This document shows positions 6,745 through 46,415 of a stretch of 64,000 bases of DNA, piece by piece (position 1 is the stretch's first letter; each line of letters opens with the position of its first letter). The notes under the pieces were generated by a model, which did no database searches, had not been told where the DNA came from, and saw only the letters and a list, made by a program, of their open reading frames with translations. Source of the stretch: a bacterium. GTDB lineage: Bacteria > SZUA-182 > DTGQ01. Where the stretch lies: contig JBFLZW010000002.1 in NCBI GenBank assembly GCA_040755755.1, positions 66,397-130,396 of the forward strand. The letters run 5' to 3'. The position numbers and the translations under genes are program-made.

Positions 6745-7581
6745 TCATTTGACCGGGATAAAGCCATTGCTTTCAACGATCTTCTGACCTTCGGGCGTGA
6801 AAAGATAATCGATGAACTTTTTCGTCAGACCTGAAGGCTGGCCTTTGGTATTGCTGTACAACCCTCGACTGACGGTGTACTTGCCCTGTTTTACGTTATC
6901 CAGAGTTGGCAATACCCCATCGAAAGCTACCGGGGCCACCGTCTCATCGATATGGCCCACAGAGACATAGCCTATGCCATAAGGATCCTTTGCTATGGCT
7001 GATTTCATTGCTCCGTTGGAGGCGACAAAATTGGCTTTGGGAGTGATCGCCCCCTTGTCGAGGGCCTTTTCCCAGAAGACTTCACGGGTACCGCTTGCCT
7101 CGTCTCTTGTATAGACATTAATTCCCTTATCTGCTCCGCCAAGGAGTTTCCAGTTGTCGATCTTCCCTGAGAAGATATCAATAACCTGAGCTTTGGTCAG
7201 CTTTTTCACTTTGTTATCCGGATGATTAATGATACCTACACCGTCAATGGCCCACTGGAATATCGTGAGATTATACCTGGTAATTTCCTCATCGGTGGGT
7301 TTGCGTCCGGAATTCCCTATCTGGACCAGACCTTCCCCTACCTGCTTGATTCCAACCCCCGAACCACCACCGGCAATGGTTATCTGAATATCCGGATTGA
7401 CCTCCATAATCTTTTTGGCCGCCTCCTGCATCACCGGAATATGAGCTGTACCTCCGGCTATTTTCAAGGTTCCCTTTTCATCCCTGAAGGAGTCCAGTTC
7501 TCCAGCCTGTAAACTCATACCTGCGCCAATGATTAAACAAATCGTCATCGACAATGCAATCAGAATATACTTTCGCTTCAT
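6745..7581 (-). CDS. pstS: Phosphate-binding protein PstS
   Basis: Signal peptide followed by a PBP-like domain. RBS aggtaaggagag. Confidence 0.85.
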   Translation of the reverse strand: MKRKYILIALSMTICLIIGAGMSLQAGELDSFRDEKGTLKIAGGTAHIPVMQEAAKKIMEVNPDIQITIAGGGSGVGIKQVGEGLVQIGNSGRKPTDEEITRYNLTIFQWAIDGVGIINHPDNKVKKLTKAQVIDIFSGKIDNWKLLGGADKGINVYTRDEASGTREVFWEKALDKGAITPKANFVASNGAMKSAIAKDPYGIGYVSVGHIDETVAPVAFDGVLPTLDNVKQGKYTVSRGLYSNTKGQPSGLTKKFIDYLFTPEGQKIVESNGFIPVK

Positions 7582-26592: not shown

Positions 26593-26668
26593 TCTCCCGC
26601 AGAGACGCAGAGGCGCAGAGAATGACCCAAAATGATATCCTCTGCGCCTTTGCGTCTCTGCGGGAGAA
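26593..26668. repeat. 76-bp palindromic element, family C (CTCCCGCAGAGACGCAGAG...CTCTGCGTCTCTGCGGGAG)
   Basis: tctcccgcagagacgcagaggcgcagagaatgacccaaaatgatatcctctgcgcctttgcgtctctgcgggaga. Second copy at 32563-32638. The arms are shared with the MITEs at 37030 and 46140. Confidence 0.7.
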
Positions 26669-30969: not shown

Positions 30970-31032
30970 AACACAAAGCAAATACAAATACAAATACAAA
31001 GGACACCACAGAGACACAGAGACACAGAGAAA
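30970..31032. repeat. Family B heptamer repeat (reverse orientation)
   Basis: aaatacaaatacaaatacaaaggacaccacagagacacagagacacagagaaaag. Confidence 0.6.
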
Positions 31033-31134: not shown

Positions 31135-31584
31135 ATGGAAAAGATAGAAATCAAGATAAAAAAAATGGCAGGCTGTGAGGATATTCCCCTTCCCGCCTAC
31201 ATGAGTGAATTGGCTGCCGGGATGGACGTTTTTGCCGCTGTCGAGGACGCGGTAAAAGTTATGCCGGGAGATTGGATGGCTGTTCCGACCGGGTTTTCCA
31301 TCGCCATACCTGCGGGGTATGAGGCCCAGATCCGACCACGCAGCGGCCTGGCCCTTCGCCACGGCATCGGCCTGATGAACAGTCCGGGGACTATCGATGC
31401 GGATTTTCGGGGTGAAGTTAAAATCATTGTCGTCAACCACGGCAAAGAGCCGTTTGTCATCAAGAGGGGAGACCGTATTGCCCAGATGGTTATCCATCGG
31501 GTCTATGCAGGCTGTTTCGAGGTGGTTGAAGACCTGCCGGAAACGAAAAGATCGGATGGAGGATTCGGCCATACCGGAGTGTGA
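31135..31584 (+). CDS. dut: dUTP diphosphatase
   Basis: dUTPase motifs AAGMDV, RSGLA, IDADFRGEVKIIVVNHG, GDRIAQMV. Confidence 0.9.
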   Translation: MEKIEIKIKKMAGCEDIPLPAYMSELAAGMDVFAAVEDAVKVMPGDWMAVPTGFSIAIPAGYEAQIRPRSGLALRHGIGLMNSPGTIDADFRGEVKIIVVNHGKEPFVIKRGDRIAQMVIHRVYAGCFEVVEDLPETKRSDGGFGHTGV

Positions 31585-32562: not shown

Positions 32563-32638
32563 TCTCCCGCAGAGACGCTGAGACGCAGAGGATATCATTT
32601 TTGGTCATTCTCTGCGCCTCTGCGCGTCACTGCGAGAG
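32563..32638. repeat. 76-bp palindromic element, family C copy
   Basis: ctcccgcagagacgctgagacgcagaggatatcatttttggtcattctctgcgcctctgcgcgtcactgcgagag. Confidence 0.7.
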
Positions 32639-32798
32639 ATCATTCTTCTATCCTTAAATACGTGCTATCATAGCGTTTGTTAAGGATGTGCCTAAACCAA
32701 AGAAGCAATAAATCTCCAATTTTCAATATATTGGACCAGCTTTCCACTTCCATGATATCTATTACTATTTAACTATTAGAGAATATTGGTTACAGGCA

Positions 32799-33560
32799 GT
32801 GAGTTACCAAGTAATTGAAATCACAAATGAATATAATACCATTGAACAGCTTGGAACAAAGGCAAAATTCTGGTTTTATGATAAAAGCGATAACACCACA
32901 AAATCATTTAAAATTGGCAGACCTGGCACTGGAGAAAATTGGGCGGAAAAAGTTGCGTGTGAGTTAGCAAAGCTCCTGAATTTACCGTGTGCCGAGTATG
33001 AATTTGCAATCTGGAAAGGAAAAGAAGGTGTAATATCGCCATGCTTTGTTCCTCCAGATGGCAGACTTGTTCATGGGAATGAAATACTGGCGAAACTCAT
33101 TGAAAGTTATCCTAAAAAGGAACTTTATAAGGTTCATGAATACCAGCTTTCAACAGTTTTGGAGGTTATAAGTAGGGAAATACCTAATTTGCCATTAGGT
33201 TATGAAAGAGGTACAATAATTCAGAAGCCATTGGAACTTTTCGTAGGCTATTTAATGTTTGATTGTTGGATTTCCAACCCTGATCGTCACCATGAAAACT
33301 GGGGATCGGTACTTGATAATACAAGTAAAAAAATGCACCTTGCACCGACATACGATCATGCATCAGGATTGGGATGCAGAGTATCTGATACCGAAAGAAC
33401 AAAAAGACTAACTACCAAAGATACAAGGTATAATATAGAAGCGTTTGTTAGAAAAGCAAAATCTGCTTTTTACGATAAAAACTCGATACAGTTAGATACA
33501 ATCGAAGCATTTACTTATGCTGCCAAGCAAAATAGAAGGGCAGCGAACTTCATGCATTAA
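32799..33560 (+). CDS. HipA C-terminal-like Ser/Thr kinase domain protein (HipT-like, 253 aa)
   Basis: WISNPDRHHENWG matches the HipA catalytic motif (IGNTDAHAKNFS). AEKVACELAKLLNLPCAEYEF matches the HipA helix region. The segment is AT-rich. Confidence 0.55.
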   Translation: MSYQVIEITNEYNTIEQLGTKAKFWFYDKSDNTTKSFKIGRPGTGENWAEKVACELAKLLNLPCAEYEFAIWKGKEGVISPCFVPPDGRLVHGNEILAKLIESYPKKELYKVHEYQLSTVLEVISREIPNLPLGYERGTIIQKPLELFVGYLMFDCWISNPDRHHENWGSVLDNTSKKMHLAPTYDHASGLGCRVSDTERTKRLTTKDTRYNIEAFVRKAKSAFYDKNSIQLDTIEAFTYAAKQNRRAANFMH

Positions 33561-33645
33561 TTAGTGAGCCAGCAATCAATTTTGCATTGGAAATCTTGGC
33601 AGCAAACAAAAAGCGCTTATTAGACTCAAAAACAAGGTCATAAAA

Positions 33646-34434
33646 ATGGACATGACTACCGTACTTATCTTAGCCTGGCAAAACCCGCATAATCGTGGAT
33701 GGGTGCCTGTCGGAAGATTGCAGTATAAGGGTACTCGATACATCTTCCAATATACCATTGGCGCAAAACAAGCAAAAGACTTCGTGCCATTTAACCTGAT
33801 GACTGATTTAGCCAGTTCATACGAGTCAGAAGAGTTGTTTCCGATTTTTCAGAATAGGCTGCTCTCGAAATCGAGGCCGGAATATAATGACTACCTAAAT
33901 TGGCTCAGCCTGGAAAAAGATACAATTTCCCCTTTCGAAGAGCTCGCCAGGACAGGAGGAATCAGAGCCACTGATTCCCTCCAATTGTTTCCGATTCCCG
34001 AAGAGAGAAATGGAAAGTATGAAGTCATATTTTTCGCTCATGGGATCAGTCACTTGGCACCTGGCTATATTGAAAAGGTTAATCAGCTCAGTCAGGGAAC
34101 GAAGCTCTATGTAATGAGAGATATTCAAAACGAATTTGCCCCTTATGCACTTACCTTGAGAACCGGTGACACCCGGGAAATCGCAGGTTACTGTCCAAGA
34201 TTTTTTACCCGGGATTTCGGGAGGCTGATTGATATTAACGGCGCAGAAAATGTGGAAGTTACCGTTGTTAAGGTTAATGTAAACTCACCATTACAATTTA
34301 AGCTGCTCTGTAAGTTGAGCACATCCTGGCCAAGTAAATTTGTCCCTTTTGCGGATGAAATCTTTCAGCCCATCATAGACAGAGAAGACATACAAAAACC
34401 GGCAAAGGCCAAAGGCATCGACATCAAACCATGA
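33646..34434 (+). CDS. HipA N-terminal-domain-like protein (HipS-like N-region plus a ~150-aa extension)
   Basis: LILAWQNPHNRGWVPVGRLQY...FQY and LFPIFQNRLLSKSRPEY resemble HipA N-terminus (VTWMNNQRVGEL...FKY and VFNFFDNLLPDSPIVRDRI). ATGA overlap with the next gene. Confidence 0.4.
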   Translation: MDMTTVLILAWQNPHNRGWVPVGRLQYKGTRYIFQYTIGAKQAKDFVPFNLMTDLASSYESEELFPIFQNRLLSKSRPEYNDYLNWLSLEKDTISPFEELARTGGIRATDSLQLFPIPEERNGKYEVIFFAHGISHLAPGYIEKVNQLSQGTKLYVMRDIQNEFAPYALTLRTGDTREIAGYCPRFFTRDFGRLIDINGAENVEVTVVKVNVNSPLQFKLLCKLSTSWPSKFVPFADEIFQPIIDREDIQKPAKAKGIDIKP

Positions 34435-36974
34435 TCTCAGAAAAACCTCTACCTCAGACAGATCTATTCCAGTCCCTGCCGGAAGAGGCACGGAATCAAC
34501 TGAAGAGCTTCTTTACCCTCAAAAAATTTCAGGCGGGTGATGTGATCATCCGTCAGGGGAGCAGGGAGACTCAGTATTTCTATATCGTTGCATCTGGACT
34601 GGTGGAGCTTTTCGTTGATGAGGAGGATGGCTCCCGGATTCATCTGGCCTCCATAGGCCCTGGTGATTACTTTGGCGAGCGGGCACTGCTGGTGGAGGAG
34701 GACAGCTCCTGCAACGTCGTTGCCCGTGAGGATACGGAGGTCTATGTCCTCACCAGGGAGCATTTTTATCAGTTTCTGACCGCCCATCCTGAATTGAGCC
34801 GTCACTTCGTCTGGACCTTTACCCAGCGCCTTCACAGAACCAACCTGCTCCTTGAGGAAAAGGAATACAAGGAGGCCATGATCGACCTCCTTTCCGAAGA
34901 GTACAAACCGTACACCGAAGCCATTTTTATTGCCAGAAGCCGCGCCATGCGGCCGGTGCTTGAAGGTATCAGGCGGGCGGCCAGTAATTCTTCGCCTGTC
35001 CTGATCGAGGGTGAATACGGGTCCGGCAAGCAACTTTTGGCCCGCCAGATTCATGCCAAAACGGCGCGATGGAGGAAAGCCTTTATCCTGGTGGACTGCG
35101 GTGCACTGATGGAGGAGGAAAACCGGGAAGAAAGTCTCTTTGGCCGGGAGCATGGCCAGCCGTTTCACCTTTCGGAGCATGCCTTTGGGTATCTTGAGCT
35201 GGCTGAGGGCGGAACCCTGTTCCTGAAAAATATCGATCAGCTTTCTCTTGAGGTCCAGCAGCGGATCCGGGAAGTAGTTGAAACCGGGTCTTACACCCGG
35301 CTTGGGTCAACGCAGGTCCGGAAGGCTGACTTTCGGCTCATAGCCAGCACCCGCGCGAACTTACGTGAAAAGGCCGCAGCGGGGGAATTTGATTCCAGGC
35401 TCTACGGGCTTTTGAGCGCCAATCATATCCAGTTGCCCCCCTTGCGAGAGCGCAAGAACGCTATCCCCAAGCTGGTCGATTACTTTATCAAAAAATATGC
35501 CAGACTGGTCAATAAAAACGTTACCGGCGCTACGCCGGAAGCCATGCAGGCACTCCTGAAGCATGATTATAAGCTTGGCAATATCAAGGAGCTCGAACAG
35601 ATCATCGAGCGTGCCGTTGCGCTGCCGAGCGATGATAAAATCTGGCCGCGACATCTTTTCCTTGGGGCTCCGGCTGTCAGGCCGGATAGCTGGTATTTTA
35701 ACCTTTTGAAAATCAAGCCCTTTGGCCGATGGGTGATGAATAAGATCTATCCGGACAAGCTTCAGTATGCAACTGCAACCTTCTTTATGCTCCTGATTCT
35801 TCTCTGCTTTCTGGGACCGGCGAGCGCAGCACGCAACCCTGCCGCTTTTCTGGTCTGGCGGGTCTGGTGGCCGATGATGTTCCTGTCATTTTTCTGGGTT
35901 GGCCGCACCTGGTGCTCTATCTGCGCCTATGCGGCTTTTGGCCGCAAGTTTCAAAAGCTCAAGCAGTATCAGCTTCCTGTTCCCGCATTTATCCGGGACC
36001 ATGATGCCCTTCTGGTAACCCTGGCCTTTCTGACCATTCTCTGGGCTGAAGAGATCACCCACATGCGCTCCTCACCCAGGGCCACGGGTTGGCTGATGGT
36101 CACCATGCTGTCTCTGGCTATGGTCAGTGCGGTCATTTTCCGGCGGGAGAGCTGGTGTCGATACTTGTGCCCTATGGGCGGGCTGATCGGGGTCTGCTCC
36201 ATGAGCTCCATTATTGAGCTGCGCTCTGATACCACGCTCTGCGCAAACCAGTGCAAGGGGGCCGAGTGCTATAACGGGACCCCGGAAAACCCCGGCTGTC
36301 CTCTCTTTCAGCACCTGCTCTTTGTTGATAACAATCAGAATTGCAAATTATGTTTGCAGTGCATCAGAAACTGCCCCAACCATTCGGCATCCCTGAACCT
36401 TCGTCTGCCGGGGCGTGAAATATGGCTTTCCAATCAGGTTCGTGACAAAATGTCATTCTTTGTCTGTGCCCTGCTTGGATCCCTTGTGCCGGTCATTTAC
36501 CTTGAAGCCAGGAACATTACTCTGCAGGGGGGAAGGGTGAAAGCGCTCTACACCCTGGCCCATTTCCTGCTCCCGGTTATTGTAGCCGCAATACTGTATA
36601 TTCCCGGCCTGCTCAGTTCTCCCGGAACAAAATCCCTCAATTGGCTTCGCTTCTGGCATACCTCGTATGCCTATGTTCCCCTGGCCCTGGCAGCTCACCT
36701 TGCCCACCAGATGCAGTTTGTTCCCGGCGGAGAATATTTCCAATACCTCATCCGGTCAAGGGCTGGTGGAATAATCCAGGGGCCAATTGTTCAACCGCTC
36801 CAGACAATGGCTCTGATTTCGGGATTGTTATTTTCCTGGTTTTGCCTGTGGCAGATCTACCAGCATCGACGGCAGAAGAAAACCTTCGAGGCGCAATGGT
36901 GTTTCTGGCTGGGGCATGCTTTTTTGATGAGTCTTTATGCAGCTATGGTATTTCATCTGATGGTTTTTCGGTAG
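34431..36974 (+). CDS. Multidomain fusion: cNMP-binding domain, then a sigma54-interaction-type AAA+ domain with degenerate GAFTGA and no HTH, then a NapH/RdxA-like membrane polyferredoxin
   Basis: cNMP pocket GDYFGERALL. Walker A GEYGSGKQLLARQIH. ESLFGREHGQPF sits where ESLFGHEKGAFTGA is expected. More than 8 TM helices carry WCSICAYAAFG, SWCRYLCPMGG and CKLCLQCIRNCP (CxxCxxCxxxCP). Confidence 0.65.
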   Translation: MISEKPLPQTDLFQSLPEEARNQLKSFFTLKKFQAGDVIIRQGSRETQYFYIVASGLVELFVDEEDGSRIHLASIGPGDYFGERALLVEEDSSCNVVAREDTEVYVLTREHFYQFLTAHPELSRHFVWTFTQRLHRTNLLLEEKEYKEAMIDLLSEEYKPYTEAIFIARSRAMRPVLEGIRRAASNSSPVLIEGEYGSGKQLLARQIHAKTARWRKAFILVDCGALMEEENREESLFGREHGQPFHLSEHAFGYLELAEGGTLFLKNIDQLSLEVQQRIREVVETGSYTRLGSTQVRKADFRLIASTRANLREKAAAGEFDSRLYGLLSANHIQLPPLRERKNAIPKLVDYFIKKYARLVNKNVTGATPEAMQALLKHDYKLGNIKELEQIIERAVALPSDDKIWPRHLFLGAPAVRPDSWYFNLLKIKPFGRWVMNKIYPDKLQYATATFFMLLILLCFLGPASAARNPAAFLVWRVWWPMMFLSFFWVGRTWCSICAYAAFGRKFQKLKQYQLPVPAFIRDHDALLVTLAFLTILWAEEITHMRSSPRATGWLMVTMLSLAMVSAVIFRRESWCRYLCPMGGLIGVCSMSSIIELRSDTTLCANQCKGAECYNGTPENPGCPLFQHLLFVDNNQNCKLCLQCIRNCPNHSASLNLRLPGREIWLSNQVRDKMSFFVCALLGSLVPVIYLEARNITLQGGRVKALYTLAHFLLPVIVAAILYIPGLLSSPGTKSLNWLRFWHTSYAYVPLALAAHLAHQMQFVPGGEYFQYLIRSRAGGIIQGPIVQPLQTMALISGLLFSWFCLWQIYQHRRQKKTFEAQWCFWLGHAFLMSLYAAMVFHLMVFR

Positions 36975-37029: not shown

Positions 37030-37295
37030 GAATGTCACTTACATAAGCCAAGCTTATAATTATAGAGAGAACACAAAGCGCACAGGGAAAAACGATCTCC
37101 CGCAGAGACGCAGAGGCGCAGAGAACAACCAATCCGACAAGGCCCTGATGAAAGTCGGGATATGCCGATGTGTCAACGGCCTGGAAGCAAGCAAAAAGTA
37201 AAAAGGCACAAGGAGGAACTTATTTTACTCTTACTTTTCAATGACATCCTCTGCGTCTCAGCGTCTCTGCGGGAGAATTACTAATTCTTATGTAA
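37030..37295 (+). mobile_element. MITE-like element (266 bp) with terminal inverted repeats and a 9-bp target-site duplication
   Basis: TIR gaatgKcacttacataag. TSD atttaaacg at 37021-37029 and 37296-37304. Internal family-C palindrome arms. Near-identical inverted copy at 46140-46415. Confidence 0.75.
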
Positions 37296-39811: not shown

Positions 39812-40189
39812 ATGAAGGCTACAGCTATTAAAGAGCAAAGAACAGGGGCATTGATTCCTTCGGAAACGATTTCTGCTGTTATCCGGGCTATCGCTGAGAG
39901 CTTCTCCCCCCAGAAAATTATTCTCTTTGGCTCATATGCATCAGGGCATCCAACACCAGACAGTGATCTTGATCTTTTGGTCATTATGGAGAGTGACCTG
40001 CCGCGACACAAACGGGCTGTCCCGATTCGGCGGCTTTTTCGTCCGACTCCCTGCGCCATGGATATCCTGGTTTATACGCCGCAGGAGGCGGAATACTGGA
40101 ATGGGGTAGCTAACCACATTATTACCGAGGTATTCGAAACGGGAAAGGTTGTGTATGAAAGACCAAACAATGAGAGATCGAAACCGTGA
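39812..40189 (+). CDS. Nucleotidyltransferase-domain protein (MntA-like antitoxin)
   Basis: LFGSYASGHPTPDSDLDLLV. Confidence 0.75.
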   Translation: MKATAIKEQRTGALIPSETISAVIRAIAESFSPQKIILFGSYASGHPTPDSDLDLLVIMESDLPRHKRAVPIRRLFRPTPCAMDILVYTPQEAEYWNGVANHIITEVFETGKVVYERPNNERSKP

Positions 40190-46139: not shown

Positions 46140-46415
46140 GAATGGCACTTACATAAGAATTAGTAATTCTCCCGCAGAGACGCTGAGACGCAGAGGATAT
46201 CATTGAAAAGTAAAAGTAAAACAAGTTCCTCCTTGTGCCTTTTTACTTTTTGCTTGCTTCCAGGCCGTTGACACATCGATATATCCCGACTTTCATCAGG
46301 ACCTTGCCGGATTGGTTGTTCTCTGCGTCTCTGCGTCTCTGCGGGAGATATTTTTTTCCCTGTGTGCTTTGTGTCCTCTCTATATTATAAGCTTGGCTTA
46401 TGTAAGTGCCATTCG
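46140..46415 (-). mobile_element. Second MITE copy (inverted orientation), approximate 7-8 bp target-site duplication GTCTARG
   Basis: Reverse complement is near-identical to 37030-37295. Flanks are gtctaggg and gtctaagc. Confidence 0.75.

Follow-up and report, generated by a model that had tools for sequence, protein, structure and literature searches.

A hipIN (PDC-M03) kinase–HIRAN cassette with a damaged kinase gene in a bacterium of the SZUA-182 lineage

A stretch of 64,000 nucleotides (nt) from contig JBFLZW010000002.1 of a metagenome-assembled genome (MAG) of the SZUA-182 lineage was analysed, and this whole stretch is called the window below. Judged by its sequence and by modelled structures, the segment 32640-34434 of the window is a chromosomal hipIN cassette, which corresponds to the PADLOC candidate defence system PDC-M03, and its arrangement is already known. 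hipIN was described in silico by Gerdes et al. [quoted passage not shown] A preliminary description of the window had proposed a new toxin-antitoxin or kinase-signalling arrangement, and the novelty of this proposal does not hold. That description had also missed two features, the truncation of the first gene by a 64-nt deletion and the HIRAN identity of the extension of the second. Our reading is that the locus is a decayed hipIN toxin-antitoxin cassette, a member of a known family in which the kinase gene is damaged and hipN is intact, and we give this reading a probability of about 0.63.

The cassette consists of two co-oriented open reading frames (ORFs) on the forward strand, encoding proteins of 253 and 262 amino acids (aa). 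Both proteins fit the PDC-M03 models nearly end to end. The first matches PDC-M03A (E 1.2e-96) over profile positions 4-253 of 305, and the second matches PDC-M03B (E 3.1e-87). The preliminary description had placed the kinase gene first and had seen no gene for a helix-turn-helix (HTH) antitoxin. Both statements were borne out, and no ORF for an HTH or HipB protein was found upstream of hipI.

The product of the first gene is, by sequence and model, a predicted HipA-superfamily kinase core without HipA N-subdomain-1. Pfam HipA_C scores 29.1 bits in this protein, slightly below the cut-off of 30.5, and was detected in all 32 of the family members compared, which are about 300 aa long and carry HipA_C only. 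The motif NPDRHHENWG, from which a HipA C-terminal kinase had been proposed, is present. The catalytic residues D162-R-H164-H-E-N167 of this motif and the Mg-binding D186 are kept in the window protein, are invariant across the 32 sequences, and align with the DxHxKN and YD motifs of HipT from Legionella pneumophila, HipT(Lp). A motif resembling a Gly-rich loop, LGTKAKFW, is also present, and corresponds to LGTKxKFW at residues 18-25 of the family. The fold was modelled on a full-length homologue, P0003, which is 71% identical to gene 1. The model has a predicted local distance difference test score (pLDDT) of 91 and a predicted TM score (pTM) of 0.91. Its best Foldseek match was CtkA (TM 0.75-0.82), followed by HipA and then HipT. 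In a search of Protein Data Bank (PDB) sequences with the family profile, CtkA was found with an E value of 1.2e-14 over positions 46-299, which include the C-terminal helices, and HipT(Lp) was a weak match (E 0.0035).

The hipI gene of the window is damaged near its 3' end. In comparison with relatives, 69 nt (23 codons) have been replaced by 5 nt, a net loss of 64 nt, and the resulting frameshift makes a TAA stop codon at 33558-33560. By tblastn, residues 5-255 of P0003 align to 32799-33551, and residues 279-304 align to 33557-33634 in a different frame. By blastn, positions 6752/6822 of a syntenic relative, contig L086, match positions 33550/33556 of the window. The ancestral hipI stop lay 2 nt before the hipN start codon, and in intact loci the stop and start codons likewise abut or overlap; the spacing in the window is now 85 nt. 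The window HipI lacks its last ~52 residues, the equivalent of residues 256-308 of P0003. In the P0003 model the missing part forms helices 250-262, 265-273 and 282-307 with pLDDT of 96-98, packed into the C-lobe of the kinase. This part can be aligned with CtkA's C-terminal helices and holds the nearly invariant residues W256, F272, P276, I280, F287 and N295 (P0003 numbering). The integrity of the kinase active site had been singled out in the preliminary description; the active-site residues are intact, but the gene has lost its last ~52 codons. HipI homologues form 961 clusters at 90% identity and are typically 297-309 aa long. The complete kinase domain that is a feature of hipIN is missing here, and the locus is a degraded member of the family. 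The window kinase is most likely inactive or destabilised. Programmed frameshifting was considered as a rescue and rejected, because the frameshifted product would still lack 23 conserved residues. The literature searched held nothing useful on how C-terminal truncation affects the toxicity of HipA.

The second gene, hipN, is intact. The part of its product that had been called an extension of unknown nature is a HIRAN domain, with a Pfam score of 34.1 bits (cut-off 24.7), and the same domain was found in all 33 family members. An AlphaFold2 model of the window HipN has a pLDDT of 88.3 and a pTM of 0.83, and only residues 247-262 are predicted to be disordered. In a Foldseek search of the PDB, this model matched the HIRAN structures of lp_0118 (3K2Y, E 3.5e-5), HLTF (4XZG, 4S0N, 6KCS and 5BNH) and Rad5 (6L8N). 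HipN homologues form 904 clusters at 90% identity and have 1,719 representatives at 50% identity. They are 242-248 aa long, and most are without the C-terminal tail of the window protein.

The N-terminal domain of HipN appears to be HipS-like, as is supported by its fold and weakly by its sequence. Foldseek matched it to chain B of 7VKB (E 3.2e-3, probability 1.0, TM 0.74 normalised to the target). 7VKB is the complex of HipT(Lp) with HipS(Lp), and chain B is HipS. Couple_hipA is weak in the window protein (E 0.13, residues 21-75), and it was found in 15 of the 33 family members with a best E value of 0.002. An hhalign comparison of the HipN family with 12 HipA N-termini taken from Table S1 of Gerdes et al. 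gave E 0.021 and a probability of 2%, which is not significant. The HipN profile had no match among PDB sequences even at E ≤ 10. The HipA N-domain proposed in the preliminary description is thus supported by the predicted fold and is marginal by sequence. Gerdes et al. (2021, PMC8262856) remarked that the HipS-like domains of HipN and HipL form their own branch, and the weak similarity of HipN to HipA N-domains agrees with this remark.

The positions of these features are given in Table 1.

Table 1. Features of the hipIN cassette and adjoining elements (window coordinates)
Feature	Positions	Strand	Basis
REP-like imperfect palindrome, 34-nt arms, 13-nt loop	32560..32640	.	Inverted-repeat search
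AT-rich leader 5' of hipI, presumed promoter region	32641..32798	+	No HTH ORF; promoter role presumed
hipI', shortened HipA-superfamily Ser/Thr kinase core (predicted), 253 codons, GTG start	32799..33560	+	PDC-M03A, HipA_C, homologue alignment
Deletion junction	33551..33556	.	Comparison with relatives
Out-of-frame remnant of hipI 3' end (LISEPAINFALEILAANKKRLLDSKTRS*; LISEPAINF…)	33557..33643	+	tblastn; ancestral TAA 33641-33643
hipN, complete ORF	33646..34434	+	PDC-M03B
hipN HipS-like N-domain (predicted), ~residues 1-115, including FPIFQNRLLSKSRPEY	33646..33990	+	AlphaFold2 fold match; Couple_hipA weak
hipN HIRAN domain, residues 128-223	34027..34314	+	Pfam HIRAN, Foldseek
hipN C-terminal tail, residues 247-262, predicted disordered	34384..34434	+	pLDDT <50; TGA overlaps next ATG
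Gene 3	34431..36974	+	

Syntenic relatives show how the cassette has changed. Contig L086 has the gene order of the window, rpsO-pnp-M16 peptidase-metallo-β-lactamase (MBL) hydrolase-hipI-hipN. The DNA identity between the two is about 75-82% in housekeeping genes and hipIN alike, and the synonymous divergence (dS) is 0.77-0.87 for hipI and hipN and 0.85 for the flanking MBL gene. The shared site and the flank-like divergence indicate that the common ancestor already had the cassette at this site and that its inheritance since then has been vertical. By these sequence comparisons, its acquisition is old. The four members of the clade differ in their hipI genes. The 3' end of hipI is intact in L095, where the 5' end runs off the contig. 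In L086, an in-frame TAA in the codon before LMTEP leaves a product of 273 aa, and in L093, which is 94-96% identical to L086, about 0.84 kb of hipI is deleted and only the tail is left. The window has its own deletion and frameshift. hipN is intact in all four. In this clade hipI has been disabled at least twice independently, in the window lineage and in the L086/L093 lineage, the latter by a nonsense codon and by a near-complete deletion. hipN has been kept under purifying selection, and its ratio of nonsynonymous to synonymous divergence (dN/dS) is 0.14-0.25. In the comparison of L086 with L093, neither of which has a full hipI, the 28 changes in hipN include about 14 synonymous ones, compared with 20% expected under neutrality (p = 4e-4). 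Loss of the kinase first, with hipN kept, is the order of decay that would be expected of a toxin and its antitoxin. This decay series offers indirect natural-history support for the toxin and antitoxin roles proposed in 2021.

At the hipI deletion scar in L093 (positions 1232-1300), a 19-nt direct duplication (CTATATGCAAGTTGACTTA twice) was observed, which may be a footprint of deletion or rearrangement.

The cassette can be compared with several known systems. HipI was described as a short kinase of 279-321 aa without HipA N-subdomain-1, and HipN was proposed as a putative antitoxin that possibly senses phage DNA ends (PMC8262856). HipI kinases were assigned to a subclade of main clade XI, which has 81 kinases in Table S1 of Gerdes et al. 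The window locus agrees with hipIN in having a small kinase that lacks N-subdomain-1 and carries its Gly-rich loop close to the N-terminus, in placing the kinase gene first, in encoding a C-terminal HIRAN domain and, by predicted fold, a HipS-like domain in the gene downstream, and in having no HipB. It differs from hipIN in that the kinase gene lacks its last ~52 codons. Its adjacent genes match PDC-M03A and PDC-M03B, but its kinase stops well short of the end of the PDC-M03A profile. PDC-M03 is a prediction, and no validation of it was found in the literature searched. HipL (Gerdes et al. 2021) shares the three domains and their order but joins them in one polypeptide; the window has two ORFs with the ancestral stop before the hipN ATG, and intact relatives also have two genes.

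HipBST of Escherichia coli O127:H6 and L. pneumophila (7AB3, 7VKB, 8EZR) resembles hipIN in dividing the HipA fold between a core kinase and a HipS-like part. HipS is a separate antitoxin of about 100 aa which blocks the Gly-rich/P-loop. There are fold matches between the N-domain of HipN and HipS(Lp) and between the HipI model and HipT, although the sequence similarity of HipI to HipT is weak. Unlike HipBST, in which the order is hipB-hipS-hipT with an HTH protein HipB and a stand-alone HipS upstream, the kinase gene comes first in the window, HipB is absent, and the predicted HipS-like domain and HIRAN are fused in one protein. The canonical HipBA system is different again, with a kinase of about 440 aa that has Couple_hipA, HipA_N and HipA_C and is preceded by hipB, whereas proteins of the HipI family have about 300 aa and HipA_C alone, and hipB is absent. 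The C-terminal domain of HipN shares the HIRAN fold with HLTF and Rad5 (4S0N, 4XZF, 6KCS, 6L8N) at 9-15% identity, and DNA binding by HipN is putative. Among solved structures, those of CtkA (JHP0940) of Helicobacter pylori (3AKJ, 3AKK and 3AKL) come closest to the HipI family, and CtkA is nearer to it than HipA or HipT by both profile and fold. The likeness covers the C-terminal helices, and the sequence identity is 17-19%. CtkA is described as a secreted pro-inflammatory kinase and is not known as the toxin of a toxin-antitoxin system.

A mechanism for an intact hipIN module may be proposed by analogy with HipBST and with the suggestions of Gerdes et al. HipA and HipT phosphorylate aminoacyl-tRNA synthetases, GltX and TrpS, respectively (PMC8262856). 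An intact HipI might likewise phosphorylate an essential translation component and so poison translation. HipS binds beside the Gly-rich/P-loop of HipT and blocks ATP binding, as reported in the HipBST papers, and in HipN the HipS-like domain might hold HipI off. The HIRAN domain of HLTF binds DNA 3' ends (cited in PMC8262856). HIRAN in HipN might sense free DNA 3' ends, of phage DNA or of replication intermediates, and release the kinase. The freed kinase would then cause growth arrest or abortive infection. At the window locus, the module would be in decay and hipN would be left orphan-like.

The hipIN family is now far larger than the modules listed in 2021, when 14 of the 1,239 modules counted were hipIN (PMC8262856). 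The adjacent pair without HipB occurs at hundreds of loci elsewhere, including plasmids and prophage-like elements of Vibrio. It is conserved, with abutting or overlapping genes, in diverse MAG contigs and in Sulfurospirillum deleyianum, and it was found on a mobilisable Nostoc plasmid. In Vibrio elements of about 14 kb the pair is accessory cargo beside an integrase, as in L096 (PQ189359.1, 10953-12646) and three related elements of Vibrio cyclitrophicus, and these 14-kb V. cyclitrophicus elements are classified as Vinavirales phages. In another locus (L089, 285-5972), an intact hipIN lies directly downstream of genes for Csc2, Csc1, Cas3, a Schlafen/AlbA_2 ATPase and Cas4, beside type I CRISPR-cas genes, which is a defence-island context. 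A paper of 2025 in Nucleic Acids Research again lists clusters of HipA and HIRAN genes as predicted defence genes, without testing them. hipIN/PDC-M03 is thus a large, widespread and mobile family that pairs a HipA-type kinase with a predicted HIRAN sensor of DNA ends, and it is a plausible abortive-infection system. The window locus brings no architectural novelty, and the damage to its kinase makes it ill suited as an entry to experimental work. Its value is comparative.

Several points weigh against the reading of a decayed toxin-antitoxin cassette. Toxicity, neutralisation, the kinase target and sensing by HIRAN are all put forward by analogy, and in the literature searched hipIN, HipL and PDC-M03 have bioinformatic mentions only, with no experiments found. 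The window kinase was set beside the named HipI proteins of Gerdes et al. by their described architecture and not by their sequences. The sequence similarity of the HipN N-domain to HipA N-subdomain-1 is marginal, and its assignment as HipS-like depends on one Foldseek match with a predicted model. The deletion was confirmed in assemblies and not in reads. Every invariant and catalytic position in the first 251 residues of the window HipI is intact, the dN/dS of the retained part of hipI is 0.17, and the shortened kinase may have kept some residual activity. The last points would also fit a fully working module, in which HipI can do without its C-terminal helices and the kinase of 253 aa stays active under the control of HipN, and the 273-aa allele of L086 suggests that short forms could be tolerated or favoured. 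We consider a working module unlikely. The low dN/dS mostly reflects the time before the lesion, and the lost part comprises six nearly invariant residues and three confidently predicted C-lobe helices that can be aligned to CtkA. Among 120 listed homologues, the shorter entries are mostly fragments on short contigs or marked partial, and the remainder are 288-319 aa long, apart from these two short alleles. Moreover, the close relative of L086 has gone on to delete hipI, in keeping with a lost function and not with selection for a short form.

Retention of hipN could also mean that HipN has a selectable job independent of the kinase, either as an anti-addiction or immunity factor against HipI from plasmids or prophages, or as a repurposed sensor or binder of DNA 3' ends. 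That hipN is intact in each of the four clade members, irrespective of the condition of hipI, and under purifying selection even between two relatives without a full hipI would agree with this, and the mobilisable plasmids and prophage-like elements that carry hipIN could be countered in this way. However, decay of the toxin first with temporary survival of the antitoxin is the default and needs no extra function. The comparison of L086 with L093 includes only 28 substitutions, and part of the branch may predate the loss of hipI. A separate role for HipN is therefore a rather doubtful explanation. An error of assembly or sequencing, with an intact gene in the real genome, is a very improbable cause of the truncation. 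The window does come from a MAG, but a 64-nt loss is untypical of homopolymer or polishing errors, and relatives carry other, independent hipI lesions. In addition, a separate assembly pipeline produced a Logan contig, recorded in 4 samples, that spans the junction and agrees with the window at 100% identity over 32595-36560.

A new kinase-signalling unit coupled to the gene downstream of hipN seems the least probable explanation of all. This gene 3 encodes a protein of 847 aa with an N-terminal cyclic nucleotide monophosphate (cNMP)-binding domain, a σ54-interaction AAA+ domain together with its lid, and, at the C-terminus, a long membrane region that carries a Fer4_5 4Fe-4S motif. Pfam found no DNA-binding HTH in it, and its architecture is unusual for a σ54-activator-type ATPase. 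Coupling was suggested by the co-orientation of the genes and by the 4-nt ATGA at 34431-34434, in which the ATG of gene 3 overlaps the hipN stop. The overlap noted in the preliminary description is present, but it is conserved neither in the orthologues of gene 3 nor in other hipIN loci. Close orthologues of gene 3 were found in two unclassified MAGs only (81% and 78% identity), and they have hemB or a HEAT-repeat gene upstream instead of hipIN. The syntenic hipIN relatives have other downstream genes, including HicB-like and polysaccharide-export genes, and the downstream genes of hipIN loci elsewhere are also unrelated. Beyond 34379 the window has no DNA homology with L086, and the overlap is formed by a hipN tail that is variable and predicted to be disordered. 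The ATGA overlap is therefore lineage-specific, probably a by-product of local rearrangement and not a sign of coupling. The orthologues of gene 3 (L006, L007) did not define a clean empty insertion site for the cassette, and the upstream synteny is not conserved in them. Synteny was found on the opposite flank, by way of the hipI homologue in L086.

The decayed cassette still differs in composition from its surroundings. Low GC content had been noted for the segment and is real, since 32640-34434 has the lowest value of 1245 equal-length sliding windows in the 64 kb, 3.5 standard deviations under the mean. The figure of 37% given for it fits only gene 1; the whole segment has 39.6% GC, compared with 0.532 and 0.540 in the 2-kb flanks. 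The GC fraction is 0.371 for hipI and 0.437 for hipN, and at third codon positions it is 0.295 and 0.46, compared with 0.59-0.68 in the adjoining genes. The hipIN copy of L086 is AT-rich too (34-35% GC vs 47-52%). The proposed horizontal acquisition is consistent with this foreign-looking composition, but the acquisition is old, with dS as in the flanks. A strong compositional island signal can thus outlast long vertical inheritance. No tRNA genes or Rfam families were found near the cassette, and tRNA-linked integration was rejected because tRNA genes are absent nearby. The leader of hipI holds a 19-nt inverted repeat (32642-32660 / 32766-32784). A promoter and terminator scan gave no convincing site upstream of the hipI start and nothing above shuffled expectation.

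The segment had also been said to begin right after a palindromic element. The palindrome is real, but it was rejected as a border of the island because it is a dispersed repeat and is missing between the MBL gene and hipI in L086. Its family has 19 motif matches in the window vs 0.07 expected, with copies at 26598-26662, 32568-32624, 37101-37271 and 46173-46343. The copies are GC-rich and intergenic, resemble repetitive extragenic palindromic (REP) elements or miniature inverted-repeat transposable elements (MITE), and are built of CGCAGAGRCGCWGAGA units. The family also occurs in a related metagenomic lineage (L087, 5574-5648). At 31007-31030, where a spacer separates the genes for the M16 peptidase and the dUTPase, lies a short (CACAGAGA)n-like tandem tract, a degenerate relative of the palindrome unit.

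Other differences were seen near the cassette. A second indel close to the cassette concerns the dUTPase gene at 31135-31584, which the window has between the genes for the M16 peptidase and the MBL hydrolase. Blastn showed no counterpart of it in L086 (4712-5210), where the spacer of about 500 nt contains no called gene. In L093 (2564-3922) and L095 (1670-2767), HicB-like / UPF0150 antitoxin-type genes and a small nucleotidyltransferase gene follow hipN. The site downstream of hipN is thus a small hotspot of toxin-antitoxin genes that differ between lineages. Further downstream in the window, a minimal nucleotidyltransferase ORF (NTP_transf_2 / Polbeta) lies at 39812-40189 on the forward strand, probably as one half of an MNT-HEPN toxin-antitoxin pair. 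Low GC content is also seen in the region around it, at about 39.1-39.9 kb.

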